DNA from: Strigamia acuminata
Taxonomy: Eukaryota
Assembly: GCA_949358305.1 (NCBI GenBank)
Contig: OX442314.1
Span: forward strand, 20,956,001-21,020,000
Reading direction: 5' to 3'
Length of the DNA: 64,000 bases
The position numbers and the translations under genes were made by a program. The notes under the pieces are model-generated. The model did not search any database, was not told the origin of the DNA, and was given only the letters and a program-made list of their open reading frames with translations. Shown piece after piece: positions 10,919 to 51,399 of the stretch. Each line of letters begins with the position of its first letter. Position 1 is the stretch's first letter.

Positions 10919-12048
10919 ACAACTGGTCTTTATTTCGACTTTAATTTTCTTTTCCAGTTGTAACTCATTTTCCATTAAATAATTTGTATTATTTAAAAAA
11001 AAAAAAATTAAAATATATTTCGTATTCATGCATTAAATTTACAATTATTTTATTGTGCATCGTACGCAATCACAATCAAAAAATATTTTCCAAGTACAAA
11101 ACGTTCGTGTAGAAAATGTAGAAAAAAAATAAACAACTTCATCCAACCTGCCACTAAAACGGACGAAATTAATCATTTTTACTCCTCGATGAAAGAAAAA
11201 AAATCGTTACCCTTAATCCTTTGCCATCCCCAGTTAAATCCGCCCTCCTCTCCATTTCTTCTTTCTTCTTTAGTTGCTCCTTATACTTTTGAGAATCTCT
11301 CAAGCCTCGAGATTCTTGATCTTTCATCCGTTTTTCGGCTGCCTCCGCTAGCTGGCGACGTTTCGTTTCCTGTCAAGCAAGAAAAAAATTGAATCAACAA
11401 GTGCAACATGTAAACATATTAATGTTTAAATCACATAAGCCAAAAAAACCAGTTTTCACTATTTAGAAATTTTTATTTTATTAGAAGCAGGTCACCTTCA
11501 TGTCTGCCTGCACCTCAGGTTTCCTTAGCTACAATCTGGCAAACAGTTTGATTGGTTGCCAAGCTTTCAAACAGGTGTGGCTTATCAGGGAGACATGGGC
11601 GGGTGCAGGTGAATGGCAACACAATAGCCACAGGAAATGACATGCTGGAAGTACTGGACAAAAGTTAAGATCAAATTTGTTGTTGTTACAGGTGTTATCT
11701 TGCGCTTTTATTATTCATACACATCTCAGGTGAGCACAGGTGAAACTTGAAATTATATTTCCACATTGATTAATTTAGAACCATTCAATCGAGCTACATT
11801 TCCCCCCGACACGCTTCACCGCCCATTTCTCTTTATTTCCTACTAAAACAAACGAGATAGATTCTCGAAAATGCTATTATCTTTTATTAATTTTTATTCA
11901 TTCTATTTTTACAGACTTAATAACGATTTCGAGGAAAAGTGTTGGCTTTTTTTGATGGACAATTCTACAATTCCGTGATTTATTTCTCATTTGTCGGATA
12001 AAGGATATAAAACTTTGAAAAAAGGAGAAAAAAAGAGGAAAAAGTGTC

Positions 12049-24693: not shown

Positions 24694-27483
24694 TTAGTTC
24701 GCTTCCTTTTCAGATGATCCCTGAGGAACGTCCGGAGGCGGAGGTGGAGGTAATTCTTCGGTTACAGGTGGTTTAGCCATCTCCGGAGTTGCTGGAATCG
24801 TTGGTTCGGCGATCGGTAAAATCGAGGTGAGACGTGATGAACGATCGCTCGGGTCTTCGAACTCCCCGATGAAGTATCGATCGTGGCCGCCAACTGGTTC
24901 GTAGGGGGCGCCGACTCGTTCATGTACCCAGATACGCGAGAGGAAGGGGGCCAGGCCTTGATTGGTATGGTGGATCTTCTGGGCCTCGGCCGGATTCGTC
25001 GGGGCGCGGTGTGCTCGCAGCAGACGTTGGTGCTGAATGAAATCGACGCCTGGACCCGCCTCTAGAGTTCGCTCCATCCATAAGTAGAGCGAGTGGCCGT
25101 GGTCGCTCGATCGCTTGATCTGGTTCTTCGTCTTCTGGGTCATCGTCAAACTCGGGTAGTAGTGTTTGAGTTGTGCGTCGATCGGAGGCAAAGGTTTCGG
25201 CTCTAATTTTTTCTTGGGCCGCAGGATCTTCGGTTTTGTTTTCGTCTTTCGGACGACTACTTTCACGCCTTCGATCGGAACCAGTCCTTCGGGGAACTTT
25301 ATCGTCTCCTCTGGAGTGGCCGTCGGGGCTGTCTGGCTCGCCGCAGTCTCGGGAAGAGGTTCGTTGATTAATGCGGCTGGTTCGCGTTGTGGTAAAGCCA
25401 CAGTTCGGACCGCTTGATATGATTGTTCCGGGTCGACGTCCTCTGCAACTAACTGCGCGCGAACCTGGATACAGGAAGGGACTAACTTTAGCCATCGCTC
25501 GATGAGAGCGGGAGGCAACAGAAAGCTTTCATGAGCGACGACTGCCCAGGCTGCCAATGCTACACGGGCGTTTCTAAATGTGGACGCGGCCAATACGAGC
25601 GACATCATGTCTGTGAGCACGACTGTTGTGCGCGCTGTTCGTGACGGATGATCTCGTCCGGGGCTCTTGATGAACTCGATGGCCGCACTTTGGATGTTCG
25701 TTATCGCAATCTGCATGGTCCTGGCTTGATATTCGTCAATGTCGGACACCATCTCTTTCGCTTGCTCGATCGTGGTTGTGTCGAGAAACGACTGTAAATC
25801 GTATGGCGTTGGGTCGAACTGGATTGTGGCTCGAACCTCCGACGACTGGCTACTGGAAGTTGGTTTTGAAGGCGTTTGGTCGTTCTTTTCGGCTTGAGCT
25901 ACGGCTACTTGCTTTGAATTAAATAAAACTCGTTGAATGTCGGGTTCGGGCTCATCCCAAACAATCGGTGTTCTCGACGTGGAAATTTCGCTTCGCGTTT
26001 CTTCTGGTACGGCCGGGAAAATGGGTCCAAAACGATCTTGTCGTCGTTTGAGTTGCTCAAAGGGACTCAGCGATGCTGGGGTTCCGATAATCACAGTCTT
26101 TCGGAATGCGCTGGGCAGACTAGAAGGTACGCTACTAACTGGTTTGGCTGGCGCCTTGATGAATGCGCTTGGTACCGACGTTACACTCATCTCGATTGAT
26201 TTGGTCGGCCGATAGACGGGTTTCGCCTGTTCGTTCTTGACTTTCAGGACGGCTGCTACCATATCGGCTTCGGTGTAAAGTTTTTCTTGTTCGGGTACGA
26301 TCATCGGCTCTACCGATTGTTCGTGTTCGATCGTTATCGGCACTTCTTGTCGAACTTCCACTTGCAAAGTCTCTACCTCATCGACTTCTCGCGATCTCTC
26401 AAAGCGTCCCCATGTTTCCGCTCGTGGCCTTGACAATCTGAGGCATCCGCGTTGGTTCGGTCGGTTTCTGGAGTAGCGGTATGTCTCAACTGCTCGTGGT
26501 CTCTCGACTCTGGGTTCTCGTCGCGGTGAGGGTTCTCGAGCGTGTCGGTAATAAACTCGAGGATGTGACTGCGATCGATCTTGCGTGTTGTACGACGTGC
26601 TTGGCTGATCCAGGCGTCGTCGTTTGTTGTCGTGTGCGTTATTTAACAACCCGCTCGAGAGTCGCTTCTCCGCTTTTTGTCGCTTGCGCCCAAAGATGCC
26701 CAGGTAGTGGAGCTGGTGCATTGCTTTCTGTGAGGTGATGAATCCGTGTTCGGGTCGCCAGTTGGGAACGTCTGGTCTTTCTCCTCGAACCTGGCTTAAC
26801 CAAGTTTTTATCTCGTCTGTCGAATACCCTGCGGGTTTCAGTATTTTGAAGAGATCTCGATACGCCGTCCGTCTGACTTCGTTGTAATAGTCTCTGTGTA
26901 TTTGTCGGCGCTCTTCGTCTGTGGCGGCGTTTTGCCACTTCTCGAGGACAGCCCACTCTTCGGGTTCGCTTGGATAGTCCTTTTCCAAAAACTTGTTTGG
27001 GAGTGGTGCTGGTGCGTCGTCGCGTTCTGGAATTTCCGTCCTCAGTGCGTCACGCATCTTTTCTGGGAAGTAGTGTATTAAAGTCTCCTGACTTGCCCAA
27101 AATCGCGATCGGGCTCGGGATGAAGTGAGCCGAATTTTCCATGGTCCGGTGTCTACGTCGTCCTCTAACGCTCTTCGAAATGGGGTCGGAATTTCGCTTC
27201 TCCAGAGTGTACCCGAAGACACGTTTTGCGGATCGATGGGTCCCCACGTAAGTTGGTGTTCCGGCTTTTCGTTACCATCGGGCTTTTCCCGATTTTCTTC
27301 CGGTTCGACCTCGTCCCATCTTGCGGGATCGTTCCATTCGTCTTCGCTTGGGTCTCGATCCATTTCTTCCTCTTCGTTGTCGGGTGATTGCTTCCAGTTT
27401 CTTCGCATTTTGATTTTAATTTGTTGGTTGCGATTTTTTCTTGTCAAGTACCTGTTGTCGTCGTGACAGAACGCGGAGTGCAA
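24694..27483 (-). CDS. Gypsy ORF3 in the env position, unknown non-Env protein (about 900 aa)
   Basis: Uninterrupted 929-codon frame (open upstream to 27576, first ATG about 27408) between pol and the 3' LTR. No signal peptide, no TM anchor, almost no Cys. Confidence 0.85.
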   Translation of the reverse strand: MHSAFCHDDNRYLTRKNRNQQIKIKMRRNWKQSPDNEEEEMDRDPSEDEWNDPARWDEVEPEENREKPDGNEKPEHQLTWGPIDPQNVSSGTLWRSEIPTPFRRALEDDVDTGPWKIRLTSSRARSRFWASQETLIHYFPEKMRDALRTEIPERDDAPAPLPNKFLEKDYPSEPEEWAVLEKWQNAATDEERRQIHRDYYNEVRRTAYRDLFKILKPAGYSTDEIKTWLSQVRGERPDVPNWRPEHGFITSQKAMHQLHYLGIFGRKRQKAEKRLSSGLLNNAHDNKRRRLDQPSTSYNTQDRSQSHPRVYYRHAREPSPRREPRVERPRAVETYRYSRNRPNQRGCLRLSRPRAETWGRFERSREVDEVETLQVEVRQEVPITIEHEQSVEPMIVPEQEKLYTEADMVAAVLKVKNEQAKPVYRPTKSIEMSVTSVPSAFIKAPAKPVSSVPSSLPSAFRKTVIIGTPASLSPFEQLKRRQDRFGPIFPAVPEETRSEISTSRTPIVWDEPEPDIQRVLFNSKQVAVAQAEKNDQTPSKPTSSSQSSEVRATIQFDPTPYDLQSFLDTTTIEQAKEMVSDIDEYQARTMQIAITNIQSAAIEFIKSPGRDHPSRTARTTVVLTDMMSLVLAASTFRNARVALAAWAVVAHESFLLPPALIERWLKLVPSCIQVRAQLVAEDVDPEQSYQAVRTVALPQREPAALINEPLPETAASQTAPTATPEETIKFPEGLVPIEGVKVVVRKTKTKPKILRPKKKLEPKPLPPIDAQLKHYYPSLTMTQKTKNQIKRSSDHGHSLYLWMERTLEAGPGVDFIQHQRLLRAHRAPTNPAEAQKIHHTNQGLAPFLSRIWVHERVGAPYEPVGGHDRYFIGEFEDPSDRSSRLTSILPIAEPTIPATPEMAKPPVTEELPPPPPPDVPQGSSEKEAN

Positions 27484-27657
27484 AGTTGAAAGGGTAGTCG
27501 AGGTTAAGTATCTTGATTGGCTTTCGTCTGTAATACGTAGTTGATTGTTGGAGTCTCCTTGTGATTGTTTTTGTCCCTAGGAGGTCGGGGTAATTACGTC
27601 ATATTGTTTTGTCGCTTTTGATTGGTTATGCCAACCATTTTGGATTTTGTTGCTTTA

Positions 27658-30600
27658 TCATGTCCTCCCGGCGATTTTACCGTCCTTTATAAACGGGTTT
27701 GGTACCTTTTTTCTTGTACTTTGTCGTATTATAGGTTTCGGTATTTTACTTCTCGATCGTGTGGATTTTTTAGTAATCTCTTTTTCTTTTTCAGGAGTTT
27801 TAGGAGTTTCTTCGTTAACTGCTGCTTCCTCCCCTCCTAAATTTCCATCTGGGGCGCTAGTTAGTTCGGCGCTGTCTGGAGTTACGTGAGTCGTATTTTC
27901 GTTCAAGTCTGAAACAGTGGCGATGTCGTCGAACATATCTCGTATTGTGGGCGATGGAGATGGCTGCGTTTGGTCCTCGGCCCATTCTTCTTGTGGAAAT
28001 TCCGGCAAGTAAGGCGTCAGTTCCCGAGCGTGGATTGATCGAAAATTTACATTATCGGCCAAACGTTGCAGAGAAAATGCGTTCCCGCCGTGGGCTTTGG
28101 TAATTACGTATGGGCCGTCTCGTTTGTCGGCTAAGCCGGCATGAATCCCTTTATCTGCACTGGATAAAATGTGAGTGTCCTTCCATACGAGATCGTTGAT
28201 TTTAAAATTACAAAATTGTGTGTTCTTTTCAGACTTTTTCACTCGTTCGCGCATGTCAAACACATGTGACATCATATGTTGGTAGGTTGCCGAAATCGCT
28301 TGTTCTAGTTGATGTACGTAGATGTGAGGATTTTTTGGATCGACTTTTCGAATTCCTTCTGGGATGCGTGGATCCCAGGGCACTCGTAGCTCTCGAGCGA
28401 AGTTGAGATAAGCCGGGGAAAAGCCGCGGTTTCTCGAAATGGTCGTTCGGATGCTAAATGCTATTTCTTTAAGGAATTCGTCCCACTTGGAATGTACGTC
28501 TGTGAAAATAGCAAGCGCATATTTTATGTCACGGTTGAGGCGCTCCACGGGATTAGCCCGTGGGTTATACGTTGAAGTAAATGATGGTTGAATGTCGAAT
28601 TGATTGCAGAAGTCCTTGTACAACCTTGATGCGAACTGTGGGCCATTATCGGAAATTAATTTCCGCGGGAAACCAAAATGTAACGCGACTTCGTAAAGAC
28701 ATTGGATTATTTTCTGCTTAGTCGGGTGGGCCATCGGATACAATTCTGGCCATCCAGTTGCGACATCCATGATCACGAGTATGTATTTGTGGCTATTTGC
28801 ACTTGTTATCTTAGGACCCATAAGGTCTACGCTCCAACAATCAAAGGGGGCGAACGGTCCAAGTGATAAATTCTCGTAGTTAGCCTTATTTCGAGGCTTG
28901 CAGGCTTGGCATCGTGGACAGTGTCGTATAAATCGAACGATGTCCCTTCTCATTTCAGGCCAATAGTACAGTTGACTGGCTCGATAGAGAGTCCTGGCCA
29001 CGCCGGCATGTCCGGCTAGAGGGTGGCCGTGTACCATCCACAGAATTTGTGTTCGAACCTTTCTCGGAATTACGACTTTAATTGAACTCCCTGACTCTGT
29101 CAAGTCGTCCCGAAAGTTTGGATGGTACTTTAAAAGTAGGCCATCGTCTATCAGATAAGCGGATGCCTTAATTTTGAATTCTTCTCTGGATTCTTCGCTG
29201 TAGACGTCGCTGGGGAAAGTCTCGTTGGTCAAGTAGTCATAGAACCTTTTACAGAAGGCGGTGTCGTTCTTCTGAGCTTCGATGAGTTCCTCGCGAGTAG
29301 GTGGGACACAGTTCGTGCCTTTACTCACGTGTGCAACGAAAGCTCGCACAAATTTATCCGAGATTCTGGGTTCGATGGATAAGTCGTAATTTGGTCTGGC
29401 ATCTTTTGCCGATTGATATGCCCTCATCCAATATCCGACGTATTTTTCATCGGAAGATTCTAACTTTTCTTTTGGCAGTTCATTCTGTTTTCTGAATTCC
29501 CACTTCCTGATCGGGGTGGGACAGTAAGCTATCCGAGAATCGTCGTCACCGTCGTCGTCTGGCTCGTCGGGTTCTGAGGCGGGAGCTCTAGAGAGTGCGT
29601 CGGCGACTGTGTTGTATTTCCCTGGTTTATATTCGATTTGTAAGTCGTAAGCCATGAGTTCTAATTGCCATCGAGCCATTCGACCCGACGGTTCTTTAAG
29701 GCCCATGAACCACCTCAGTGCTTGATGGTCAGTCTGGACGGTAAATTTTGTGAATTCGAGGTAAGGCCTGAATTTTCGGACTGCCCATACGATTGCTAAG
29801 CATTCGAGCTCGGTTGCTGAGTAATTTTTCTCGGCGGCTTGAATCTTCCGGCTGATGAAGATTGTGGGTACTTCTTGTTGGGTACCGTCGATTTCGTGCA
29901 TCTGCATTAACGCAGCCCCCAATCCGATTTTACTTGCATCCGTATGTAAGATAAATTCGCGATTCAAGTCTGGAAGAGGGATGGTTTTGGTGTCGATTAG
30001 CATTTGTTTGATTTTGTCAAACGCTGCTTCGCAATGGCTGGTCCAGTTAAATTTGATTTCGGGGTCTTTCGGCGGGTCCTCTTTTGGATTTATTTTCTGG
30101 ACAGTCTTTAAAAGATCAGTGATTGGGGCCGCGACTTCCGCTAAATGTGGCAGGAGTCGGCCGAAGAAATTTACCATTCCTAAAAAACGTTGTACCCCTT
30201 TCACGTCCGTAGGTGCTGGAAATTCGGTGATTGCTCGTACTTTCTTTGGATCTATGGATAAGCCATTGACTCCAACTTTGTATCCAAGAAACGCAAGTTC
30301 TTTTCGGCAAAACTGGCTCTTTCCGGGGTGTACGTGGAGTCCGGCTTTTGCTAAACGACGTATTACTTCGTCGATATGTCCGAGGTGTTCGTCAAAAGTT
30401 TGGGAAACAATAATAATATCGTCCAGATAAGCCCAGGCGTATTTATGTAGCGCGTCGCCCAAGACTTTCTCGATTAATCGTTGAAAAGTTGCCGGGGCAT
30501 TCACTAGGCCAAATGGCATGACATTAAACATTAATCTGCCCATCGGGGACCAGAAAGCGGTTTTTTCTTTGTCTTCGGCACGGAGTTCGACCTGCCAATA

Positions 30601-31992
30601 TCCTTTCGACAGATCCATCGTTGTTACCCAATTAAATGGGGCTAATTCTCGAAGAATAGCTTCGATTGATGGCATCTGGACGGGGTCGATAACGGTAATG
30701 GCGTTTAGAGGTCGATAATCGATACACAGTCTGGGTTCCGATCCTGCACGCATGACGAGCACGATTCTCATCGCGTATTCTCCTAGTGCCTCGGACACTA
30801 TCCCCTTGTCCAGTAAGTCTTGACAGATCGTCTTGACGATTTCGCGTTTTTGGGGGTTCATGCCCTTGAATGGAACTCGTACTGGCTTATCCGTACTTAA
30901 TTCTATTTCGTGTTTTACGTAATCTGTCTTTCCCGGTTCTTTAGTCAGGATTTTTCGATGTTTTTGTAGCATTTCTTCAAGTAATTTAGTCTGGGTTTCT
31001 CCTAGGTTCGCGTCCATGGCCAAATTGTGAGCCAAATTTCCTTCTTGGAGTCGGGCGTTAAAAGATTTGAAATCGTAATCTTGTACGAATTGCTTCAAAT
31101 TTCCGCCTTTCCATTCGTCCTCTTCGTCGTTTGAATCCAGGAGTTCGGTAGGTACCGTCATTAGTCGGGGGTCCTCGCGTTGGTCGATATAGTTCCAGGA
31201 CCTCGTTATGGGGTTGGGCTGGATCTCCATTATGGCCATGATGTCCATACCCAAGAGTAGGACCGTGTCGTAGGTTGGTAAAACGATGAAAGGATGGGTT
31301 ATTACGCCGCCCTCCCATATGACTTTTGTTGTTAGTACCCCTACTGGACGTACTTCTCCAGCAGCGGTTTTTACGGCCACATTTTCGCTTATTCCCCGTA
31401 GTTTGTCGCGTTGCTTTTTGTCCAAAGACTCGTATAGATCCGAAGAGATGAAGGACCGGTCGGCTCCCGAATCCAATAAACCGATGAATTTTTTGTCATT
31501 GAACTTGATTGTTAACATCGCGAGTGAATCCTTCCTCTCTTTAGCTAAATTACAATGTAAAATGCGTTTCTTTCGAGGTGGGGCCTCCTCGTAGGCGTGA
31601 GGTAATTCTTGGAATATTTCGGCTATTTTTTCGCCGTCCGCCGTATTAGTGGTTGGGCCACTATATTCGCGTTTTTCTGTGGTGAAGTAAGCCGTAGTGA
31701 AATAAACGACCTTTCTCTGTAATTCTTTTATTTGTTTTTCTAACCAATTGGTGTTTATCCATTTGGCTTTTAATTCGTCTTCCGAACTTGAGTCGCTAAT
31801 TTCTTTATTATTTGTTTCAATTTCTTTCGATTTTTTCTCTTTTAATTCGAGTTTTAATTTGACTACTTCTTCCGTAATTACTTCGTTAATTGCTTGGTTA
31901 ATTGTCGTATTCGTGGTAAATTTTGGGGTTTGGTCTTCCGGGCGTGCAGACAGATTTATTATTTTTTCTCTGTCTGCTTTAACCAGTTTTTT
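27658..31992 (-). CDS. pol: Gypsy pol (PR-RT-RNaseH-IN), expressed by -1 frameshift from gag
   Basis: LLDSGADRS protease, RLCIDYRPLN/YLDD RT, TDASKIG RNase H, HGHPLAGH...CPRC and DDE integrase, GPY motif. Frame is stop-free upstream of the ATG at 31518 to about 32007, overlapping the end of gag. Confidence 0.96.
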   Translation of the reverse strand, partial: KKLVKADREKIINLSARPEDQTPKFTTNTTINQAINEVITEEVVKLKLELKEKKSKEIETNNKEISDSSSEDELKAKWINTNWLEKQIKELQRKVVYFTTAYFTTEKREYSGPTTNTADGEKIAEIFQELPHAYEEAPPRKKRILHCNLAKERKDSLAMLTIKFNDKKFIGLLDSGADRSFISSDLYESLDKKQRDKLRGISENVAVKTAAGEVRPVGVLTTKVIWEGGVITHPFIVLPTYDTVLLLGMDIMAIMEIQPNPITRSWNYIDQREDPRLMTVPTELLDSNDEEDEWKGGNLKQFVQDYDFKSFNARLQEGNLAHNLAMDANLGETQTKLLEEMLQKHRKILTKEPGKTDYVKHEIELSTDKPVRVPFKGMNPQKREIVKTICQDLLDKGIVSEALGEYAMRIVLVMRAGSEPRLCIDYRPLNAITVIDPVQMPSIEAILRELAPFNWVTTMDLSKGYWQVELRAEDKEKTAFWSPMGRLMFNVMPFGLVNAPATFQRLIEKVLGDALHKYAWAYLDDIIIVSQTFDEHLGHIDEVIRRLAKAGLHVHPGKSQFCRKELAFLGYKVGVNGLSIDPKKVRAITEFPAPTDVKGVQRFLGMVNFFGRLLPHLAEVAAPITDLLKTVQKINPKEDPPKDPEIKFNWTSHCEAAFDKIKQMLIDTKTIPLPDLNREFILHTDASKIGLGAALMQMHEIDGTQQEVPTIFISRKIQAAEKNYSATELECLAIVWAVRKFRPYLEFTKFTVQTDHQALRWFMGLKEPSGRMARWQLELMAYDLQIEYKPGKYNTVADALSRAPASEPDEPDDDGDDDSRIAYCPTPIRKWEFRKQNELPKEKLESSDEKYVGYWMRAYQSAKDARPNYDLSIEPRISDKFVRAFVAHVSKGTNCVPPTREELIEAQKNDTAFCKRFYDYLTNETFPSDVYSEESREEFKIKASAYLIDDGLLLKYHPNFRDDLTESGSSIKVVIPRKVRTQILWMVHGHPLAGHAGVARTLYRASQLYYWPEMRRDIVRFIRHCPRCQACKPRNKANYENLSLGPFAPFDCWSVDLMGPKITSANSHKYILVIMDVATGWPELYPMAHPTKQKIIQCLYEVALHFGFPRKLISDNGPQFASRLYKDFCNQFDIQPSFTSTYNPRANPVERLNRDIKYALAIFTDVHSKWDEFLKEIAFSIRTTISRNRGFSPAYLNFARELRVPWDPRIPEGIRKVDPKNPHIYVHQLEQAISATYQHMMSHVFDMRERVKKSEKNTQFCNFKINDLVWKDTHILSSADKGIHAGLADKRDGPYVITKAHGGNAFSLQRLADNVNFRSIHARELTPYLPEFPQEEWAEDQTQPSPSPTIRDMFDDIATVSDLNENTTHVTPDSAELTSAPDGNLGGEEAAVNEETPKTPEKEKEITKKSTRSRSKIPKPIIRQSTRKKVPNPFIKDGKIAGRT

Positions 31993-34502
31993 GTCAGTTC
32001 TTCGAATTTAGCTGTTAGCTTTTCTAACAATGCGTCGTTTTTGGCGGCTTCCTTCTCTTCTTTCCTCTTCTTTCGTTTTGGACAATCTCTTCTCCAGTGT
32101 CCCATCTCGTTACAGTAATTACAAGGTTTTGTGGTGGAGTTATCTGTTTTCGGGTATGGTCGTCTCACGAACTCTTTTTTCTCGTAGGGTTTATCGCTTT
32201 TTGGATTGTGGTGCTCCGTTTTATTCGCGGTCTTCATTCGGGGTCGGTAGCTTGGGGCGATTTCTTTCCCCATGTTAGCGTGGAGAATCTCTTCTTCTTG
32301 TTGGCTATCGCTGGTATCCCCTCCTGAGTTCTGCTCGGAGTTATTGTCTTCACTTTCCCTCCCTTCTTCGAGATTAGTTGCGTCGGAGTTCGTACTGGCT
32401 CTGTAAGCTTTTGGAGCCGGTATCGGGTTCGAGGTGGCTTTATCGTTCACCTTTTTCGGCGGTGCGGCCTCGATTTCTCCGTTCAGGAAGCTACGCGACT
32501 GGATCAGTCTCCCTGCGTCATGATTTTTAGCATGGATACGCTGTATGCGGAGTTGTGTTTGTGTCCTTTGTTCGGGCGTCAGGGCTTCCGTATAACGATC
32601 GTCTACTTCTTCGTGATAGTCATTTACAAATTTTAGCAGCTGTTCGAAACTATCTGCTGTGGGAGCGTTCATATCTCTCAGTACTTTCTTCGAGGTGTCG
32701 TTTAACCCCTTTTCGAAAATCACGTTTTGCGCATATTCGTCGAGTGGCGTATCCAACTCGTTGAACAAACTTTTCGCTCGTCGGAAATAGGCTCGTAATT
32801 CTTCTCCTGAGGCTTGTAGCATGAGACTGACTCTCTGTCTAATTTCTTTTTGTGTCTCGCCGTACTGACTGTTGAAAGCGACGACAAACTGTTCCCAAGT
32901 TTTTAATTTTGCTTCCACATACCAGGCTCTGGCTTCCACTACTAACATTTCGGGTAGCCCTTTTGCCACCATCTCGTCGGGTTCGGCTCCGAGTCGTGAA
33001 ATGGTGAGTGCCACTTCGTCTAAGAATTTATTGCCGGCCCTCCAAGTTCCGTCGAATCTCATCAGTCGCAACTGTGACCATTTTATGTTTCGGTCCTTTT
33101 GTTCTAAGGCCCATTGATCGGTGGAATATTTTCGAAGAAGGCTCTCGTTTTGTCTTGGGCGATTTCTCAGATTTCGATTTTGGTTGACCTGGGAGTCGGC
33201 GCGTGCTCGTTCCTCGAGTGCTCTTAATCTAGCTTCCATTATGGGATCGGCTTGGTATTGATTCCCACTGTTCGGGGACGTAGCTCCATTTTGTGGCGCA
33301 AATCGTTGGAAATTGTCGTTGGTCGAGTTCGGGTCGGTCAAGGTCGGTGTTGTCGAGTTTAGCTGCGACTCGGTCAGTTGTGTTCCGGGGGGGAAAATTC
33401 CGTTTATGGCTGTTCCAGTTAGGACCCCGTTCTTCTGTCCGATCAAAATGGTCGACTTTCTCCCGCCGTAAAGTTGTGCTTTTTGTCTTGCGGCTTCTCG
33501 GTCGGCTTCGTTGGCGGCTTGTATTTTTATTCTCTCCGCCTCATTCGCGGCGTCGACATTGGCTTGTACCGTCTGGATATCCTCGAGGCTTGGCATTGCC
33601 AACCTGTTCCGTCCTTGCTGGTTTCTGAGGTGGTTTCGCTGATTTATCAGTCTAATCATCTCTGCGTTAGGATCCTTTGGTGTTTGACTGGTGTGGCCAG
33701 CCCTCGTAGCGAAGGATTGGGCGATTGCCCACGACTGTTGACCCTTATTATTTCGACGGTCCTGTTGGAAGGCTTCCAGAAATTCGCTCTGGATTTCGAC
33801 TGGCTCGTTCACTATACTATCCCATCCTTGAACGTTGATTCCTTTCGAGCTGAGGGAATCGGCCTCGCTTTCGTCGTCGGCGTCGGATGTTCGGGTGGAA
33901 TCGTAGGAGTCCGTCGTTTGGTTATTCGTTTTTTGACGTTTTACGCTTTTTCGACCCCTTCTAAGGGCTCGTTTTTCCGCTCGCTCTTTGGCAAGACGAA
34001 TGATCATGTTCATCTGTGCTAGCGGGTCCCCTTCTTCATCGTAAGGGATTCCCTCCAGTCGAGCGAGTTCGTACGCTTCTTTACAGCTATCGATTTGGGA
34101 TTTCTTCGAATTATAACCGTGTGTGATCGTGACACGATTACTCTGGCGATTATCCTGATTGTCGAATAGGTTATACCCGTTCTGACTTTGTTCGGATTCT
34201 TCTTCTTCCTCTTCTTCGACTTCTCCTTCGATTCGCTGGTTTATTGGCGTTTTATTCGTTGGGGCTTTGCTAGCGGGTACTTTACTAGCCGGCGTTTTAT
34301 CGGTCGGTACTTTCTCGGGTGGTTTTTCCGCGTGGTTTTCGTTGACTGGTGTCTTTCCAGTCGTCTTTTCCCTCGTCGGCTCCGGTGGCTGCTTTTCTAA
34401 CGCTGGACTAGCTAATGCTTCGGCCCTTGCCTTGGCGGATTCCATGGCTTTTCTTCGGGCGCTTGCGGTTGAAGGGTTTCGATTTTTCCCGCTTTTCGTC
34501 AT
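31959..34502 (-). CDS. gag: Gypsy gag (about 847 aa from the first ATG) with a long low-complexity N-terminus
   Basis: Capsid-like FDG...ARAWY...TWEQFVVAF...QASGEELRAY and CCHC knuckle CNYCNEMGHWRRDC. Confidence 0.92.
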   Translation of the reverse strand: MTKSGKNRNPSTASARRKAMESAKARAEALASPALEKQPPEPTREKTTGKTPVNENHAEKPPEKVPTDKTPASKVPASKAPTNKTPINQRIEGEVEEEEEEESEQSQNGYNLFDNQDNRQSNRVTITHGYNSKKSQIDSCKEAYELARLEGIPYDEEGDPLAQMNMIIRLAKERAEKRALRRGRKSVKRQKTNNQTTDSYDSTRTSDADDESEADSLSSKGINVQGWDSIVNEPVEIQSEFLEAFQQDRRNNKGQQSWAIAQSFATRAGHTSQTPKDPNAEMIRLINQRNHLRNQQGRNRLAMPSLEDIQTVQANVDAANEAERIKIQAANEADREAARQKAQLYGGRKSTILIGQKNGVLTGTAINGIFPPGTQLTESQLNSTTPTLTDPNSTNDNFQRFAPQNGATSPNSGNQYQADPIMEARLRALEERARADSQVNQNRNLRNRPRQNESLLRKYSTDQWALEQKDRNIKWSQLRLMRFDGTWRAGNKFLDEVALTISRLGAEPDEMVAKGLPEMLVVEARAWYVEAKLKTWEQFVVAFNSQYGETQKEIRQRVSLMLQASGEELRAYFRRAKSLFNELDTPLDEYAQNVIFEKGLNDTSKKVLRDMNAPTADSFEQLLKFVNDYHEEVDDRYTEALTPEQRTQTQLRIQRIHAKNHDAGRLIQSRSFLNGEIEAAPPKKVNDKATSNPIPAPKAYRASTNSDATNLEEGRESEDNNSEQNSGGDTSDSQQEEEILHANMGKEIAPSYRPRMKTANKTEHHNPKSDKPYEKKEFVRRPYPKTDNSTTKPCNYCNEMGHWRRDCPKRKKRKEEKEAAKNDALLEKLTAKFEELTKNWLKQTEKK

Positions 34503-34587
34503 TTCGATAGTTTGCAAATGTCAAACCGTAAGATACGTTTATTTAAAATAGTCTGATTAGTCAAACTATCCCGGACAGACCCCCACG

Positions 34588-35197
34588 TGTCGTAACCTTG
34601 ATTCCGGTAAATAAACTTACACAATATCTTACTAATAACACCCTTTATTTCACACTTGTAATAATACAATAATGATACTTAACAATGTGGTCTCGGATCC
34701 TTGCTGGCGGATACGATTTGTTGCTGCACGGCAGTCTTACACGTGGCTTCTACTGTTGTCTAGGGTAATGGCGTCTGGCGAAACACGTGTTCGCAAACGC
34801 TTCGCTTCGGGAGATATTACGATCGTAGTATTGCTACGATAATATCTGTGACTCTGATTTATAGATGTAATTGGCAACGGGCATCGATCCTCTATCAATC
34901 CGGTAAAACGGCCTGACGGTGAGGTGGTGATGCTAATGTTGCTCTGGTATCTATAAAGTGGGGGTTTCCGGTCAGACACGGGTTTAAATAGTGGCTGGAC
35001 CGGAAATGACGTATTTGCATAAATTCGGGGAATTATGCAAATCTATGACGTTGTCACGTCAGTCTCGCAGAAACGGTAAAACTAGTATAGCTAATTTTCC
35101 CGCAATAATCTGACAATCATTTTACTATCAATATTAAAATTACTATTTATTAGGTTATGATTAATTAAAACACTTTTGTGACCTCGTGGTCACCACA
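34588..35197 (-). repeat. Gypsy 5' LTR (TATTTAAA box, paired octamers, AATAAA)
   Basis: Direct repeat of 24011-24620, adjacent to the PBS. Confidence 0.97.
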
Positions 35198-35213
35198 AGA
35201 TTTAGTTGAATCT

Positions 35214-35244
35214 TGGACTAATACTCAACCGGTATTACTCCCAG
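35214..35244. mobile_element. 31-bp imperfect-palindrome insertion with 8-9-bp TSD (DNA transposon micro-element or footprint)
   Basis: GTTGAATCT duplicated at 35205-35213 and 35245-35253. Insert is absent from the paralogous site near 52065. Ends TGGACTAATAC / GTATTACTCCCA. Confidence 0.6.
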
Positions 35245-35563
35245 GTTGAATCTAATAAGAAGGCCCAAGCGGCGGGCGCTGTAAATGCTCACCGCATGGT
35301 AGAATACACTAATGTTGGCGTGAACTAGGGATTACAAGTAAGAATAACAGCAATATTAGCTGCATGTACTGAAATATTTTAAATGTAAAAATAAAAATAA
35401 ATAAAAGGCAAATAAATGTCCAGTTCTCATTTATTACTTTTTATGCGTTTGAATTGTCTTTGATGGTATCAAAAGTCAAATCTTCGTAATCAGAAAAGAG
35501 TGTCACCATCGGTCGTAGGAGCTCTTTATAGTATCACTTGGTACGGCACCACATTCGAGAATA

Positions 35564-36608
35564 TGTCGCGCTCTACCGTCCGGTGACTTCACGTGGCTAT
35601 TGAGAATCACTTACCTTAATATATCGCTTGTTAGAGCGATTACCCAAAGAATGAATTACACCGTCAGATAAAATAAATGATATATTTATTAAACCAGAAG
35701 GTACAAATAATAATTAGGTCTATTTCTATATGTGTTTCCAAAGTCGATCCAAGATAGCGATTGGATTCGCACACGAGTTCACCTCGAGCGTGCTGATCCG
35801 TCGTCGTCCTTGGGGTCGCTTTTGTCTTCCTTCTCGTCCTCGGGCTCACGCTGGCGCGCGAGTGGAATGCTCTGAAACGAGTCTGAAATCCTCAGCTGTT
35901 GTCTCGGGTTTTGTTTCTTCGATCTTCTACGAAAGCTTACACAAAGACTGTCGTTGTTTATCCGGTGATACACACAGCAACGGATGCTACTTTGTTTCCG
36001 GCGATCACACAGTGGCGGATGCTACTTTGTTTCCGGCGATCACACAGTGGCGGATGCTACTTTCTTTCCGGCGATCACACAGCGGCGGAATTTACCTCTC
36101 CGGCGACCCCACAGCGGCGGAGAGCATTTTCTTTTTACAACAATTAGGCTCACGAGGCCGTTTTCCTCCTGACTTGCTAATTGTCGTTGATGATCACTCT
36201 CTTGGCTATTTCTGCCAAAGTAATTTGGTTAGATTGGTATCGCAGCTAACACTGCGAAGTTATCACAGAATAACGTTACTCGTGTATGAAATTGTCCTAT
36301 GTCCTAGGTCACTCTTTGCTTGGTTTGCTAAGCCCTGACGGTTTAGGACGTTGGGTTTTACGTGTTGTTTGGTTCGTTTCTGTGTTGGTTCTCCTGCTCC
36401 CGTGCTGAGGCAAATTCCTCTGTACAAAAGCACTCCATCCAGTGACCGGAGTCATCCAATGAGAGTAAGTAGAGTCCTCCAAACACTTGCCCATTGACTA
36501 AATGTCAATGCACTGAGAGAGGGGGGAGCGGCCTCGACTCTCCCACAAGGCGGAAGTGGGTGATGGAGCAACCACCCCAGGCTGACCCGTTATAGTGAGG
36601 TCACTACA
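35564..36608. mobile_element. Solo LTR (1045 bp), probably Gypsy
   Basis: TGT...ACA termini, 4-bp TSD AATA (35560-35563, 36609-36612), absent from the paralogous site near 52365. Confidence 0.85.
35961..36120. repeat. About 5 tandem copies of a 35-bp unit inside the solo LTR
   Basis: TCCGGCGATCACACAGTGGCGGATGCTACTTTGTT units start at 35961, 35997, 36032, 36067 and 36099. Confidence 0.9.
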
Positions 36609-38473
36609 AATATTAATTCCTAAAGTTCAAATTTACAGTATTCAGAAGCAGCAGAGATTTATAGTCTGTGGGGCCGTTCAACGTCAGCAAATGACTGATG
36701 AAGCCAGCAGCACCAAAACTGGTGGACATGCCAATTTTGGCATGCAGCCTTTGGTACTTCTTGGCATCCAAAGTCTGCAGAAGTACTCTTGGATTCATTC
36801 CTGCATCACTTGGAGTTCTTTGGAAGGTCATTGGCAATTTTTTCTCAACGGCTACAAATACAACGAAGGCACCGGGCTGACCATTGGAGAATTTATTCAA
36901 CCAAATGGTGTGGTGGTGTTGGGACAAGATCAAGATGTTGATGATGGGCAGCACGACGTGAAGGATCAAATGAGAGGCCAAATCAGTGATCTGAATATGT
37001 GGGATTCAGTATTATCATTAACATTATCATTTATTCGGCACTCCAATGGAGTAAAATAAAAAGAAAAAATACATAGAAAAATTACATATTAGTCCTGGTA
37101 CGCAGAAGATAGTTGTGGAGGTGGCGGTGAAAATGGCGGCAGTGAAAACGGCACTTGAAAGCGGAGCAATCAAAAACGGAATCGCGGACAACCAATTGAA
37201 GAGTATTCCACATCGTAGTGCAGCAATAAGGAAAGGTTTTGGCTTTGTACGTGGAGATGCAGGCGGTGACTTCGAAAGAGTGGCAACGAGTGGATCAGGT
37301 GGCTATCTCCGAGTTGTAAATACTGACGATGGCGTGGGCAGGGTGGCTAGGGTCCCTGATCGCGTCCGTGAGGGACGACAGGTCTTTAAGGCGCAGCACG
37401 TTGGACAGGGTTAGGATCTTGTGGTGATTACAGAAGGGGGTGATGCGGGTCCTGGGGGGGATCTTGTAGGAAGCTCGGAATACATGGTAATAGACAGTTT
37501 TGAGGGGAATTTTGAAATGTCGGGGGGGGGGGACTAGTTTCAGATGGGGGAGGCATAGGAGATGGAGGGGTAAATCTTAGTTTTGATGTAGGTAGTGAGT
37601 TCACGACGAGTCAAGACCTTACAAATGTGCTTCACGATTTTCGAGACTTCGAAATAATCTAGCTGCGATTGCAGCACGCGCGAGCAACAATTTGAGACGT
37701 ATTTTTAAACTTAACTAATTTTAATCGTTGAAGATTTTAACAAGGAAAATCGCGTGGTGACACACGATGATACAGGTAAAAAAGATGGTGGTCAATCCCA
37801 AAAACGGGGTTAACTTCCGGTTAACAAGGACCGGTCAAAATTACAGATTACACACCAGAGGGCACTCTTGGTGTCCCTCGATCAAAAAACACTATTGTCG
37901 TTAAAACATTACCAATACAATTCGATATTCGATAAAAACAATTACAAAGAGACTTAAAACACTTTTCGAAATAAAACACTAAAATTAAACATAAATTGAA
38001 ATCATTACTAAACATTAAATCCAAATCTGGATTTTACATTGCCGGGGGAAAAAACCACAAATCTAATTGTCGTCGGCGACTTCCAACGAGCAAAGTCTCT
38101 GCACCGGTCTTCTTAACGTTTTCCCTCCCGGCAGCATCATCTCGCAAGATCGAATTTTCCCATCTCTACCGTCAAACGTCTTCGTAATTTTCGCCGTCTT
38201 CCACGTCATGCGTGGCTGACCCTGTTCCTGCACGAGGACTAAATCGTTAACGCAAATCTCTTTAGATGCTCGTACTCGTCGAAATTCCCTCAACTCCACG
38301 AGGTACTCATGGGACCAACGACGCCACAATAAATTTGTAAATCTCTGGCGCAACTTCCATCGTTTAACTAACTCCGTTCTCTTCGAAATATCGACGTGAT
38401 GCTCCGAGTTGTAAATGTCGGGCAAACTTGAAATTCGGGTCCCGATCAAAAAATGTGATGGCGACAGCGGTTC

Positions 38474-41400
38474 TGTTGTTTATCAATGCCAAACAGTCCT
38501 CCGTACTTGTTTTGCGCATTTCTTAAAGTATTACTGCATTATGCAGCCTAGTGTATTTATTAGGATTTATTTCATTATTTAACATTGGGCATAATGCTGC
38601 CTGCATCATGTTAGTATTAGTTTACTTTTTCCAACACCAGATGGTGTCACTTGTATGTTTTCTCTCAATCACAATGGCCGCTTGCATGCCAGCAAGCACT
38701 CATGTATTTTCTCCATCTAAATGGACCAAATTATGTAAGCATTTTCGTTTTTATTAAACATATAGTTTATTTTACATTGTGTTTGCTATATATGAGCACT
38801 TTAGAGTGCAGTGACTTCATTTTCCACCATTTTCAAGCGCTGGAGGTGCGCGCACGTCATTGCGCTCATGTTAGCCGTGTTTCGGCATTTAAACTCGCTT
38901 CCACACACAGTATTTTATACTGTGAGCGCACTCCTCTGCTACAAGTGGTAGCAGAGGATGGTTGCTATCCTTGCAGCACGCCGAAACCGCTAATTTTATC
39001 GTTATTTTCGCGAAATTCGCGAATTTGCGATAAATTTTCTATTTGCAGATTGCGCCGATTTCCGCGACGATTTTCGTCTCTAGAACGTTCGAGACGACAC
39101 GCCGACGTTCTCACGTAGTCTGCCCGATCAACTCTACGATTTTTCATTTAATTTCGTCCGAATTTCTGCGGGTTTCGCAATTTTCGAGACGAATTTCAAT
39201 TTATTTTCAGGTTTTCGCCATTTTCCAACGAGATTCAACGTTGGAAACCCGCTTTATACAGCGTGAACGACGATTTGTTGGATATCCCGACCTCGTACAC
39301 CGTGTACGGTCGTTGTTACGACGATTTTCCAGGATTTTCGCATTTTAAATGCGCAACAACGCCATTTTCGATTCTCGAATATTGGCGCAACGTCTCATCA
39401 CACTAATTAATACTTGCCTTTCAGTTGTCGTAATTAGCTTGTTAGTATTTAAGGTCGTATTAAGTTTTTGTGGGTCCTTTAGAATAGTTTTTGCTCTTCT
39501 GTTCCAGTCGGAACTACCGCATTAACTCATTCCTAGCCAGTGCTTACCGTGGCCAACAGGTACTCCCGCGCCTCCAGGCAGGCGAACGGACCCCTGTGTG
39601 TTGGCTGGCTAGGGTTATTTGGCCACTTCAGAAGTGGTCGCCCAATTCGATTGATATCCGCTTTGACAGTGCTTCGATCAGTGCGCCGTATTTGTGTTGT
39701 GCTACGCGATATTGTACCATTCTCCATCCAGTGTGTTTTGCTACGGATTGTTTCGTAACTCCACGTCATGTCAAAGTCCGCAGACGGAAATCCAGGACGT
39801 CTTCCCATCCTTAGCGTAGGAAACTACGAACTTTGGCAGCGCTCAATGCGCATGGTACTCCGAAGCGAGGAATTGTGGGAACACGTAACGGAAGAAGAGG
39901 AGGTGGAATTCCTTAAAACCGCCGGAGATAAGGAGAAAAAGAAGTACAAACGTCGGAAAGCCAAAGCATTAGGCTTAATATACTGTTCTGTAAGCGAGGC
40001 GAAGAAGTCTGCGCTAGATGATTGTAAAACCCCGAAGGAAGCATGGGACATCTTAGCCAACATTTATGCGCCATCATCTCGTGCGCGACAGGCAGCCATG
40101 CGCCGCGAATTTTTGAATTTGCGCCTGGAGCAGGGCGAAGATATGGCCGACTTCTTAGGACGCGTAGACTATCATGTCCGCCAAATGAAGGATATCGGAG
40201 AGATAACTACGCCTGATCATCACGCTTACCAATACTTGGACTTATTACCTCGTGAATATTCACAAATTTCATTCACGACATATCACTTGCCCAAAGGAGA
40301 ATTTACACCAAAGAAAGTGTCTGAACAATTGCTCGCGGAACATATGGATTCGCGCGACATAGACAATTCTAAATCTCCACGTGCCTATGCTGGTGAAAAA
40401 CAGCAACGTGGGAGAAATCGTTCTCGTCCCTCTCAACCGTTATCTTCGGTGCAGTGTTTTAATTGCCAGGAATTTGGCCATTATGCTAATAAATGTTCAT
40501 TACCGCCGCGCCGAGATGACAAAAATCAACCGACAGCTTCACTTCAAAGGAAGCCAAGAAGTTCTAGCCGCAAACGCAACAAGAACTCAAACCGTGATGA
40601 TTCGAGGCCAAGGGGGAATTCCAGCGCAAGGCGGGAAACGAACTTTTTCGCCAGTGCTCCGCAACAGTTGCCCACAATTCACTTCATGCAATCACATGAA
40701 TGGATCGTGGATTGTGGGGCAACTGATCATGTGTGCCACGTTCAAGCATGGTTTCAGGACTTTGTCAAAGTTGTGCCCTTTAATATCGCATTGGGTCAAG
40801 GACATTCCGAAGTTCTAGGAAAGGGCAAAGTCCAGATTATCTCCATGATTAACAACGTAGAATGTGTCGTAAATCTCCAAGATGTGTTGTATGCGCCAAA
40901 ATTTGAGGCGAATTTGATTTCAGTGTCAAAAATGGATAAAACTAAACATCACATCCATATTTGGAATGGAGACGTTTATGTCTACAAATCCGACATTAAG
41001 CATCCAATGCTTCGGGCCAAAGAAAAGGGCGGCCTTTATTATGTCGACGGCTTGTGCCCACCTTCAACACTGATGTCAACAGTGGATGTACCTATTGCGC
41101 AGTCAATCGCTCCGACCCGAACATTAGTCACGACAGAAGAGGATTTCATCCAGTATCCAAGAGCAAAGAAAAAGTCGAAAAATCCTGAACTTTTTACTGA
41201 TTTTCGGCTCGAATTCCCTCCTTTGCCAAATGAAATTACTCCACCTGTACCAATCAAAGTAATCCAGTCCAAGACACTTCCTGTACCTACTCCCACCAAT
41301 CCGTTACCTCAAGTCCCATCCTTTGCCAAGACATTAAAGGCAAACCCACCGATCTCCCAACCGAGTTCAAATTCAAAACCGAATTCAAAGCCAACCAACG

Positions 41401-44400
41401 CAAAGAAGGTTGCAGCACCATCGGTTAAAAAGGATGCGACAGGGATATGGCACAGCAGATTGGGTCATCTTCACACCAATGCAATGAAACTTTTGGCCGG
41501 AAATAACCAAGTTTATGGAGTGACACCGGCAGAAGTGAACAAGGAACTTTCGTGTAATCATTGTCGAATTGCGAAATCAACGCGCATTTCCCATAAACCT
41601 GATGAACATCCTATTTCTACAAAGGCTTTAGATCTCCTACACATGGACGTGTGGGGAGCATCAAGAACGACTTCCTACGGAGGCGCGCGTTATGTGCTAA
41701 CGATTATCGACGACGCCACGCGCTATGCCTGGATATTTCCGATGGCTCAAAAATCCCAAGTATTTGGATTGTTCAAAGACTACGTCACACGAATCGAACG
41801 AGTGACAGGTAAACGAGTGAAGGCCATCCGAACTGACCGAGGAGGGGAGTTCTTATCAAACGAATTCGACCGCTATTTGAAGGAAACTGGGATTCAAGCC
41901 CAACGGACCAATCCACATAGTCCCGCTATGAATGGCACAGCGGAAAGAATAAACCGCACCATGGCGGATTACACGCGTGCCATCCTAGACGAAACCGAAC
42001 TTCCGAATGAACTTTGGGCGGAATTCGCAGTAACTTTCTCTTATATAAAGAACCGGTGCCCTCATTCTCGTCTCAAAAATGAGGTGCCCTATATTTTGTG
42101 GCGACGACGTGCCCTTTCGCTTAGACACCTGCGCAAGTTAGGCTCCAAGTGCTGGGTTCATCACACAGCACCTGGCAGGGACAAGCTCGATCCACGAGCT
42201 TGGGAGGGCTATTTGGTTGGATACGCCACGACAACGCGAGGTTATCGCGTCTGGAATCCAACAGATAACAAAGTCATCGAATCCATTCACGTCCAAATTG
42301 ACGAACGGCAATCCTACAAACGTTCCAACCATTATCGAGGTCCGCAGCAACCGTGGATGGGACCAGATGAGGACCAATCGCATCAAACATCGCAAACTTA
42401 TCAACCATTGCGCATTTCACAACCGCATGTGAGGTTTGACGACGAACTGGAATATACTGATTGGCCCAAATTTCCGGATTCAGAGGATGAATGTGATACG
42501 GACTATGACTCTGACGATTCGACCCCAGCGGGTGCTCAATTCCGAACTCCGCCAGCCACTCCAACTCCGGGATCTCCTATTCGAGCCCCTCTAATTACTC
42601 CAGTAATAACGCCGGTGCCGAGTCCAGTTATTACTCCCGGCAATACACCAAGTCATACACCACCTGGTTCACCTCCGAGTTTTGTAAATGCTCGTCGAGG
42701 CTCTCGTGGAAATGCGCCACAAGCTCATCAAGCAGCCCACCATGGTCCACCTCCAACTGGAGCTGCAACTGCATATAAATGGCGTTACATTGGTGGAGAT
42801 ACTGAGTGTAGACACTGGAAAAGGGAGGAACATTTGCGCAAAGTACAGGAACCTGGAAAACTCAAAGTCGATGTTTATTATTTCCCAGAAGCAGGACTCC
42901 GATTACGTTCTAGAGGTGACGTTGAGGAATTCTGTCACATGAACAACATTCCTTATGATCCTGAACTATTTTATTTTGGCAATATGGAATATGAATTGGA
43001 GGATCTTCCACAACCACTTCCCAGAGTGCACCTTTGTCGTCGTGATCCCACTAGTTACGCAGAGGCTGTAAGATTTCCGGATTCGACCAAATGGCAAGAA
43101 GCCATTAATGAAGAGTTAGACACTTTTGCAGAAAGAGGCGTCTATGAAGAGGTCCCTAAACCGGAAAATACAACCATATTAGGGTGCAAGTGGCTCTTCA
43201 AACTGAAGGAAGATGCTCTAGGCAAACCAGCCAGATATCGCGCTAGATTAGTGGCACAGGGCTTTCGCCAAACGTTAGGAGTGGACTACGATGAAGTCTT
43301 TAGCCCTGTTATCAACTTTGTTCTCATACGCCTATTTTTCTGTCTATTAGTAGTCCTCAAAGGGTGGAAGGACGCGCACTTAGATGTGAAATGCGCGTAC
43401 CTATACGGCGATCTTGCGCACAAAGTATATATGCGCATTCCAGCTGGCGCAACATGTTCAAATCCAAATCACGTATGGCTCCTAATAAAATCGCTCTATG
43501 GACTCCATCAGTCCGGGCGCCAATGGTTTGAAAAACTGGATCAAACATTGCGCGATTTGGGATTTCGCAGATTACCAGGGTGCAACTGTGTGTACATATA
43601 CGGAACTTCCGCCGTGATGCTAATATACGTCGATGATATAGTACTATTTCACGCGACGGATGGCATCCTGACGCAATTAATTGCTCTTATCAGCACCAAA
43701 TTCGATGTCGTGAATTTAGGACCAATTACAAAACTTTTAGGTGTAGAGTTCATTCGTACTCCCAAGGGAATCTTCATCATCCAACGTGCATACATACAGA
43801 AGATTCTCAAGAAATTTGAAATTATCGCCGATAAACTCATCAAGGTCCCAGTAACACCAGGAACGACGCTCGTCAAAGGGTCAAAAGAAGATTTGCCAGA
43901 ATTTCCCTATCGTTCGTTAATAGGCTCTCTTCTCTTCCTCGCATCGAGGACACGACCCGACATATTATTCTCAGTTATAATGTTATCACAGTTTAACAAT
44001 TGCTATAACCACACGCACATCAAGGCACTCATGCAGGTTGTGCGCTACGTAGGCAATACTTTGGATTACGCAATTGAACTGTCAAATTGTTCCAATGGAC
44101 AACTATGGGGATATACTGACGCGTCCTGGGCCACCGAAGTCAGCACTTCTTTGAGTTTCGGCGGGTATATAGCCTATATTGGAAACGTCCCCATCGGATG
44201 GAGTTGTCGTAAACAAACCAGCGTGGCGTGCTCAACGATGGAGGCGGAGTTTGTCGCCCTCGTTGAGTGCGTCCGTGAGCTTTATTGGCTCGATTACGTC
44301 TACAGTTCTGTCCCGATGCTGAATAGATCTTCACCACCTATAGTGTTCTCCGATGCGCTTTCTTCTATCCAATTCACATCAAATGACGTGGAGAACAGTA

Positions 44401-50805: not shown

Positions 50806-50926
50806 TGTGAGAATGATTAGACAACCATTAGATTTGATTGTCGTGACAAGACTGATTTATTCATGATTGTTGCATATAGAACCGATCTTGACCAGAACTG
50901 GCCGCCAGAGGGAGCTATCGCTAACA
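50806..50926. mobile_element. 121-bp solo LTR in the intron of the pentraxin pseudogene
   Basis: TG...CA termini, 5-bp TSD GTTAC (50801-50805, 50927-50931), absent from the intact intron near 23015. Confidence 0.8.
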
Positions 50927-51399
50927 GTTACACTCAATCAAATTGTTCATTTGTAATTTTCAGTTAGCAAATTGGCATCCTGCGAGTCAACCTACGAAGG
51001 CAATGTGATTGGTTGGAGGTCTGCCACTTGGGAGATGTACGATGGTACTAGAGTGGCTCCTGTGAAACTACCTTGCGTAAGACTATGCCACAATTAAACT
51101 TGTTTGAATGAATTAAACTTGTTGTTTGTTGTTACTTTTTATTGCAAATAAAAGTTGTATTTTTTTAATATTCTATTCTTGTTGTTTATTAAAATGTTAA
51201 TAGTTTGAAGTTCAATTCATTTTTTAAAGTCCTGTTTCTTACACTTATATTGAATGGCATTCTGAAAAGTAATTTAATAGTTCCGTAACATATGTTTATT
51301 ACCGTATCTCATTAAATTCAATTGTGTTGAACAATTAATAAAATACATTAGATTTTAAAGAGCGGTTTATAGATGTAGAAAAATCACCATAGATAAGTT

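Follow-up and report, generated by a model that had tools for sequence, protein, structure and literature searches.

A third open reading frame, split by an intron-like insert in sister copies, in a Ty3/Gypsy element of Strigamia acuminata

The Gypsy element and its third open reading frame

We analysed a stretch of 64,000 nucleotides from Strigamia acuminata (GenBank assembly GCA_949358305.1, contig OX442314.1, positions 20,956,001 to 21,020,000 of the forward strand), hereafter the window. Its minus strand carries a Ty3/Gypsy element (24011-35197), in which a third open reading frame, ORF3, runs in the sense direction between pol and the 3' long terminal repeat (LTR), where an envelope gene (env) would stand. 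ORF3 (24694..27408) starts with an ATG at 27408, stops at 24694, and encodes 904 amino acids (aa). We consider it almost certain that this Gypsy family keeps ORF3 under selection as an accessory gene other than env. Positions below are those of the window, and all parts of the element are on its minus strand.

The open frame is far longer than expected by chance. From stop to stop it covers 27576-24694 and holds 960 open codons, and 2000 base shuffles gave open frames of at most 261 (mean of 126). A preliminary description of this DNA, made from the sequence alone, gave it 929 or more codons, which matches neither this figure nor the 904 counted from the ATG. The start at 27408 is supported by sister copies of the element (see next section), since these tolerate frame-breaking indels just upstream of it, at 27437 and 27644 (two of the 12 indels listed, from a total of 87). 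A non-coding spacer (27409..27657) separates the stop of pol from this ATG; it has two CCAAT motifs and one TGACGT, no more than chance would give. An antisense frame of 202 aa (24920-25528) had no match in Pfam, and we regard it as ORF3's shadow on the other strand. In diverged sister subfamilies, around 16-20 nt round the ORF3 stop (24676-24706) look inverted by eye relative to the window copy, and despite this their frame stops no more than a few codons from where that of the window copy does.

ORF3 has none of the features of an envelope protein. The preliminary description had noted the lack of a signal peptide, a membrane anchor, and a Cys-rich domain, and hydropathy, cysteine count, and N-terminus all agree with it: the highest 19-residue hydropathy is 1.49, with no membrane helix, the N-terminus is acidic, with no signal peptide, and there are only two cysteines in the 904 aa, with no cysteine scaffold. 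There is no furin site (R-x-K/R-R) and a single N-glycosylation sequon. Matches to the sequences of Env and viral fusogens and, with low-confidence models, to their folds were looked for and none was found, in line with the earlier statement that the product is not Env.

The rest of the element is that of a young Ty3/Gypsy copy, as had been described, with LTRs, primer-binding site, polypurine tract, target-site duplication, gag, and the pol domain order of this group. The LTRs (5' LTR, 34588..35197; 3' LTR, 24011..24620) are 610 bp long, have TG...CA ends, and differ at a single position (24438/35015). They are flanked by a 4-bp target-site duplication, AGAT (24007..24010 and 35198-35201); a length of 5 bp was considered and dropped. 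The polypurine tract (24623..24632) lies 2 nt from the 3' LTR, and a donor-like site, GTAAGT, lies at 34620, close to the 5' LTR's 3' end. The primer-binding site (34568..34585), 2 nt from the 5' LTR, may resemble that for tRNA-Pro. Its string had no match in the seven supplements of PMC13524379, and no tRNA gene was found in the 64-kb window. A search of Rfam over 24000-35300 returned no matches.

Both gag and pol are intact. Gag (31959..34502; 847 aa from its ATG) has a capsid-like domain (Retrotrans_gag) and a CCHC knuckle (zf-CCHC); the capsid-like domain is preceded by an unusually long low-complexity stretch of about 500 aa. Pol (27658..32007; 1449 codons) encodes protease, reverse transcriptase (RT), RNase H, then integrase in the Ty3/Gypsy order, with no match to a chromodomain in Pfam. 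It lies in the -1 frame and overlaps gag by 49 nt, within which a slippery heptamer, A-AAA-AAC (31986..31992), points to expression of pol from gag by -1 frameshifting. The closest of the 120 listed relatives of the RT-RNase H region, fish and tick sequences among them, are 41-45% identical.

Selection and an intron-like insert in sister copies

Sister copies were drawn from the contigs of three public runs (X1, X2, and X3), which come from one organism and two studies, one of them perhaps the source of the window itself. A fourth run (X4) was excluded because it held next to none of the element. All 30 bins of ORF3 were covered in each of the three runs. We classed the best-supported 40 of the 599 substitutions, each against the codons of the window: 30 were silent, 10 were replacements, and none was a stop, while 31 fell at third positions. 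Relative to a neutral silent share of 0.30 (transition-weighted), this corresponds to a dN/dS of about 0.14 (p = 4e-9), close to that of pol; among the listed substitutions, 7 of 9 are silent in pol and 6 of 12 in gag. The preliminary description had argued that so long a frame must be under selection and had named the dN/dS of sister copies as a check, which turned out purifying, not neutral.

Some observations run against selection across the whole frame. The sample is uneven, as 30 of the 40 variants fall in codons 1-360: among those listed, silent and replacement changes number 26 and 4 in codons 1-360, 4 and 2 in codons 361-530, and 0 and 4 in codons 531-904. Also, single-base deletions occur at 26242 and 27068 in minor contigs of X2 (two of the 12 indels listed, out of 27); these may mark dead copies. 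For the C-terminal half, selection is suggested indirectly by subfamilies that remain alignable at 80-87% identity, by gaps in multiples of three, and by joints confined to linkers. Gaps were present in 13 of the 24 aligned pieces listed (from a total of 1203), with totals that are multiples of 3 in 10 of the 13, and 10 of the 13 joints between aligned pieces skip predicted linkers only. These pieces are not independent of each other, the same subfamilies recurring across runs. By its position, its sense orientation, its presence in sister copies, and its conservation at the protein level, ORF3 is a sense additional open reading frame (aORF-3S), or non-env ORF3.

Unlike the window copy, which is free of it exactly to the base, the sister copies have an intron-like insert in phase 0, with GT-AG ends, between codons K48 and P49 (27264..27265). 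Loose contig ends are found at 27265 and 27266 in each of the three runs (18 loose ends listed, of 55). On the coding strand, those at 27265 pass from an exon-end AAG into a GT donor, and those at 27266 show a T-rich pyrimidine tract that ends in CAG directly before codon 49. The AG at the boundary is common to both sides, as expected of such a site, and codon 48 ends exactly at the boundary. Exon 1 of the sister copies (27265..27408) has 48 codons, including 19 D/E, 8 K/R, and 3 W. The ends of the insert are AT-rich compared with exon 1 (51% GC), and its length exceeds 137 nt (the median loose length in X2). These ends vary between contigs, which indicates at least two variants.

The depth of the contigs in X3 shows how general the insert is. 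There, one contig (27265-27410, depth of 1029.6) reproduces the means of both bins: 866.1 observed against 866.2 expected in the first, and 1040 observed in the second, where acceptor contigs overlapping by one base add about 957/92 to the 1029.6. A further branch without the intron, at similar depth, would contribute around 315, and the remainder is only around 10; this arithmetic rules out an assembly branch joining intron-bearing and intron-less forms. All detectable copies in X3 carry the insert, with the qualification that contigs drop rare variants. Since the depth is of the order of that of the pol contigs, the intron-bearing contigs belong to the element family; an origin in a single-copy host gene is ruled out by the match to the element's own contigs.

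The insert is very probably an intron and would be spliced out of the RNA, even if none of the contigs listed spans it and its two ends, the only parts visible in the contigs, are joined by position only. In the simplest reading, an ancestral spliceosomal intron was lost from the window copy through reverse transcription of a full-length RNA from which it had been spliced. Other loose ends, common to X1 and X2, occur in pol (28367, 28731, 28790, and 31248) and are perhaps deletion derivatives or nested insertions.

The predicted protein, its relatives, and the surrounding window

The features attributed to the ORF3 protein fared unevenly against shuffled sequences. The Arg-rich RE/RP/RS tract (aa 291-340, 26389..26538) is real, with 16 Arg in 50 aa, a content reached in 0 of 1000 shuffles; codons 264-360 hold 13 silent and 2 replacement variants among those listed. 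Both basic strings resembling a nuclear localization signal (NLS) are present, GRKRQKAEKR at aa 240 and KRRRL at aa 262, but the bipartite NLS-like pattern (aa 248-265, 26614..26667) is only borderline, arising in 105 of 2000 shuffles. Similarly, the N-terminus is acidic as described, but its supposed richness in Trp is at chance (7 against 5.1 expected, 74 of 1000 shuffles). The two PSAF motifs stand at aa 413 and 432; repeated 4-mers of all kinds in ORF3 number 13 against 6.9 expected (31 of 1000 shuffles). We discarded as evidence both the Trp enrichment and patterns resembling a nuclear export signal (NES), which are at chance level in the shuffles. From its sequence, the protein is predicted to be nuclear.

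Single-sequence AlphaFold2 models, whose mean predicted local distance difference test score (pLDDT) is 40, suggest three helical blocks with long linkers between them. The first helical domain (aa 95-263, 26620..27126) reaches a pLDDT of 64-79 only at aa 151-210, and the second (aa 540-670, 25399..25791) lies mostly at 39-74 in the domain model. The C-terminal block (aa 743-850, 24859..25182) has short helices predicted with low confidence and can be aligned in the sister subfamilies of 80-87% identity.

Searches for relatives were negative almost throughout. In Pfam, the whole ORF3 and its three domains gave best E-values of 0.04-0.21, short of the cut-offs. In a set of 5.8 billion proteins, none of 7993 candidates of near length matched at E<=0.001 and none of 7572 shorter ones at E<=1, longer lengths not being covered; none was found at E<=0.001 among 1.84 billion representative proteins. 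The sequences of the PDB gave a single match at chance level (E of 0.31), and the ESM Atlas, queried with the whole ORF3 and with aa 60-270, gave nothing usable. No pattern match in metagenome contigs was confirmed (0 of 98 for ORF3, 0 of 26 for pol), and in viral contigs one of three ORF3 matches was counted as a relative, but without a locus, with none for pol. Foldseek found nothing at E<=0.001 among PDB and viral models, a weak negative since the query models have such a low mean pLDDT. Within the window, the best match of ORF3 to its own gag had an E of 0.44 and nothing else was similar. Judged by these sets, ORF3 appears to be an orphan; it is not a detectable host gene and has no homologue in the protein sets searched, among which the host genome was not included.

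The element interrupts a host coiled-coil exon, a paralogue of which lies at 51497-52138. Duplicated host exons with pentraxin domains and coiled coils cluster at 22278-24010, 35198-37059, and 50922-53946, with a 12-bp Gly-rich tandem repeat at 23449-23599 and 51440-51632. The exon copy hit by the Gypsy element also has a short insert with a flanking 9-bp direct repeat, near 35202-35253. Within 27 kb there are three very young LTR elements. The second is an intact Copia element (38474-45254, plus strand; ORF at 39759-44576) with identical LTRs of 470 bp and a methyl-CpG-binding domain (MBD) at about 42816-42977, between integrase and RT (Pfam MBD, 22.8 bits for a cut-off of 21). It matches the CopiaMBD family, which the available part of PMC6673714 reports only from Strigamia maritima and Stegodyphus spiders. 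It interrupts the third, a Bel/Pao element (37639-50547, minus strand) with identical LTRs of around 400 bp, whose long ORF is split into frames at 49557-50063, 45748-49620, and 45200-45778. Further away are host genes for a long, single-frame, Toll-like leucine-rich repeat receptor ectodomain (12019-14571, plus strand) and a WS/DGAT acyltransferase (16890-18659, minus strand).

Candidate functions of ORF3

The reading that we favour, tentatively, is that ORF3 is a nuclear factor that would protect or export intron-retaining genomic RNA, by analogy with Rev and CERV (see below). Packaged genomic RNA would normally keep the insert, because the intron could not otherwise persist through reverse transcription, and if the intron is so kept, unspliced genomic RNA would have to be exported. 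The AT-rich insert in the reading frame is probably removed before the ORF3 protein is made, the protein then being produced from spliced RNA. It would enter the nucleus via the bipartite NLS-like motif, bind RNA through its Arg tract, and help intron-retaining genomic RNA to evade splicing and leave the nucleus. A feedback loop would result: the factor, itself a product of spliced RNA, would favour RNA that stays unspliced. The lineage of the window copy would have lost the insert by copying a spliced full-length RNA. The presence of the insert in sister copies gives separate, though circumstantial, grounds for considering RNA export.

The closest working model, by analogy, is CERV, from the Ty3/Gypsy element Cer1 of C. 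elegans. As far as the available text of PMC10309623 goes, CERV occupies the env position, is not Env, is made from a spliced mRNA, is nuclear, and is required for export of the genomic RNA; its three predicted domains are joined by flexible linkers, and it has no homologue outside nematodes. Yet, in the same text, CERV has 517 aa, with a Cys loop and a G-protein-like domain, and is encoded by an mRNA of 5 exons, some of them in common with gag, whereas ORF3 has 904 aa, apparently its own ATG, an internal intron-like insert, two Cys, all-helical predictions, and the Arg tract. Database and fold searches showed no similarity of ORF3 to the H, M, and G domains or the Cys loop of CERV, no direct pairwise comparison having been made. 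ORF3 may hence act as CERV does and still not be a member of that family. Rev, for its part, is far smaller than ORF3; its NES is functional and its RNA target is structured. Factors of the Rev/Rex type resemble ORF3, as predicted, in being nuclear, Arg-rich, and made from spliced RNA, in elements that must export intron-containing RNA (for Rev, the same part of PMC10309623).

Several points weigh against RNA export. The window copy lacks the insert and still inserted recently; this intron-less copy evidently derives from an RNA that had been packaged. Retroelements can also export unspliced RNA without a factor of their own, by a constitutive-element route (PMC10309623, in the part available). 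Our searches tied ORF3 to neither CERV nor Rev nor any RNA-binding family, whether by sequence or by fold, and with its two Cys ORF3 offers no counterpart to the Cys loop of CERV. Its NES-like patterns number 9 against 6.9 expected. As for the Arg tract, two of the 13 joints skip aa 274-400 or aa 274-452 in distant subfamilies, in some of which the tract thus appears poorly conserved or missing.

A bolder version of RNA export, which we regard as doubtful, is that an arthropod Gypsy family has independently become 'complex', with the intron as a splicing sensor in a Rev-like feedback loop, the 904-aa orphan, produced only once that intron is spliced out, licensing export of the intron-retaining genome, and the three helical domains as new export folds. 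Just as speculatively, the coexisting intron-bearing and intron-less copies would then form a natural experiment.

The main rival, also no better than possible and close behind export, is that ORF3 is a transcriptional trans-activator or an anti-silencing factor acting on the LTR, built of an acidic, Trp-containing exon-1 module, a basic region binding DNA or chromatin, and helical protein-binding domains. Foamy virus Tas, HTLV Tax, and plant VANC are the models for such a factor. The acidic module coincides exactly with exon 1, whose 48 aa include 19 D/E and 3 W. The 5' LTR has three copies each of TGACGT and CCGGAA, which we take to be CRE-like and ETS-like, in excess of Markov expectation (reached in 13 and 1 of 1000 simulations, respectively). 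LTR elements are methylated in a Strigamia-type centipede, according to the available part of PMC6673714, which would reward a gene that counters silencing. However, ORF3 matches no DNA-binding family in the searches made, the LTR motifs are ordinary promoter parts that were chosen by eye before testing, and the promoter-like motifs of the spacer are at chance. A trans-activator would also leave the survival of the intron unexplained.

Two further rivals are unlikely. ORF3 could be a particle or integration helper: a partner of Gag or integrase, a carrier that brings the pre-integration complex into the nucleus, or a factor that guides the choice of target. The NLS-like motif and several basic patches would fit this role, as would the lack of a chromodomain match in pol and the captured chromatin reader of the nearby Copia element, but no late-domain or chromatin-reader match in ORF3 rises above chance. 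We give about as little credence to a captured host gene, taken up with its intron, diverged beyond recognition, and kept for some other host-derived activity. A spliceosomal-type intron is a trait of host genes, and rotifer LTR elements took up enzymes as ORF3 (PMC5408684, in the part available). Yet neither the 1.84 billion representatives nor the 5.8-billion set, which do not include the host genome, yielded a homologue, and the base composition and CpG ratio of ORF3 match those of gag and pol, not those of the AT-rich host flanks.

A highly diverged Env or another protein for spread between cells is very improbable and largely refuted, as position alone favours it, against the absence of signal peptide, membrane helix, and furin site, the two Cys and one sequon, the all-helical predictions, the lack of a match in the viral fold library, and the consideration that an unseen upstream exon could supply a signal peptide but no anchor.

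The preliminary description went too far in proposing an undescribed class of accessory gene: CERV of Cer1 was already described (PMC10309623), and additional non-env frames have been reviewed in rotifers (PMC5408684) and plants (PMC7264820), to judge from the parts of these papers available. Like ORF3, the plant aORF-3S and the ORF3s of bdelloid rotifers are, in the same parts, family-wide, conserved, in sense orientation, and downstream of pol. However, plant sense aORFs are there often transmembrane, and those of bdelloids can be recognised as enzymes, coiled coils, or membrane proteins; the present ORF3 is a long, soluble orphan with an internal intron-like insert in some copies only. Errantivirus-type, env-carrying Ty3/Gypsy elements (PMC13524379) share the order gag, pol, third frame between LTRs, with the difference that ORF3 has no fusogen feature at all; the available part of that study of env-bearing elements contains nothing on this element. 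The literature covered, which did not extend to subscription journals or Repbase-type entries, describes neither this Gypsy family nor any arthropod Gypsy element whose ORF3 is polymorphic for an intron. As far as the searches reach, the ORF3 protein and its present-or-absent intron are new, while the class and the idea of export were already known.

ORF3 bears on how unspliced LTR-retrotransposon genomes leave the nucleus and on the roles of non-env third genes, CERV being the one Gypsy case with a demonstrated export function within the literature covered (PMC10309623, in part). If export is the role of ORF3, it would be a second, unrelated export protein, in another phylum, and Rev-like control would have been invented repeatedly below the retroviruses. 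A spliceosomal-type intron that survives repeated reverse transcription in an accessory gene, beside a fresh copy precisely freed of it, makes this question directly testable. Under the rival explanations too, ORF3 would be a long, selected protein without known relatives.

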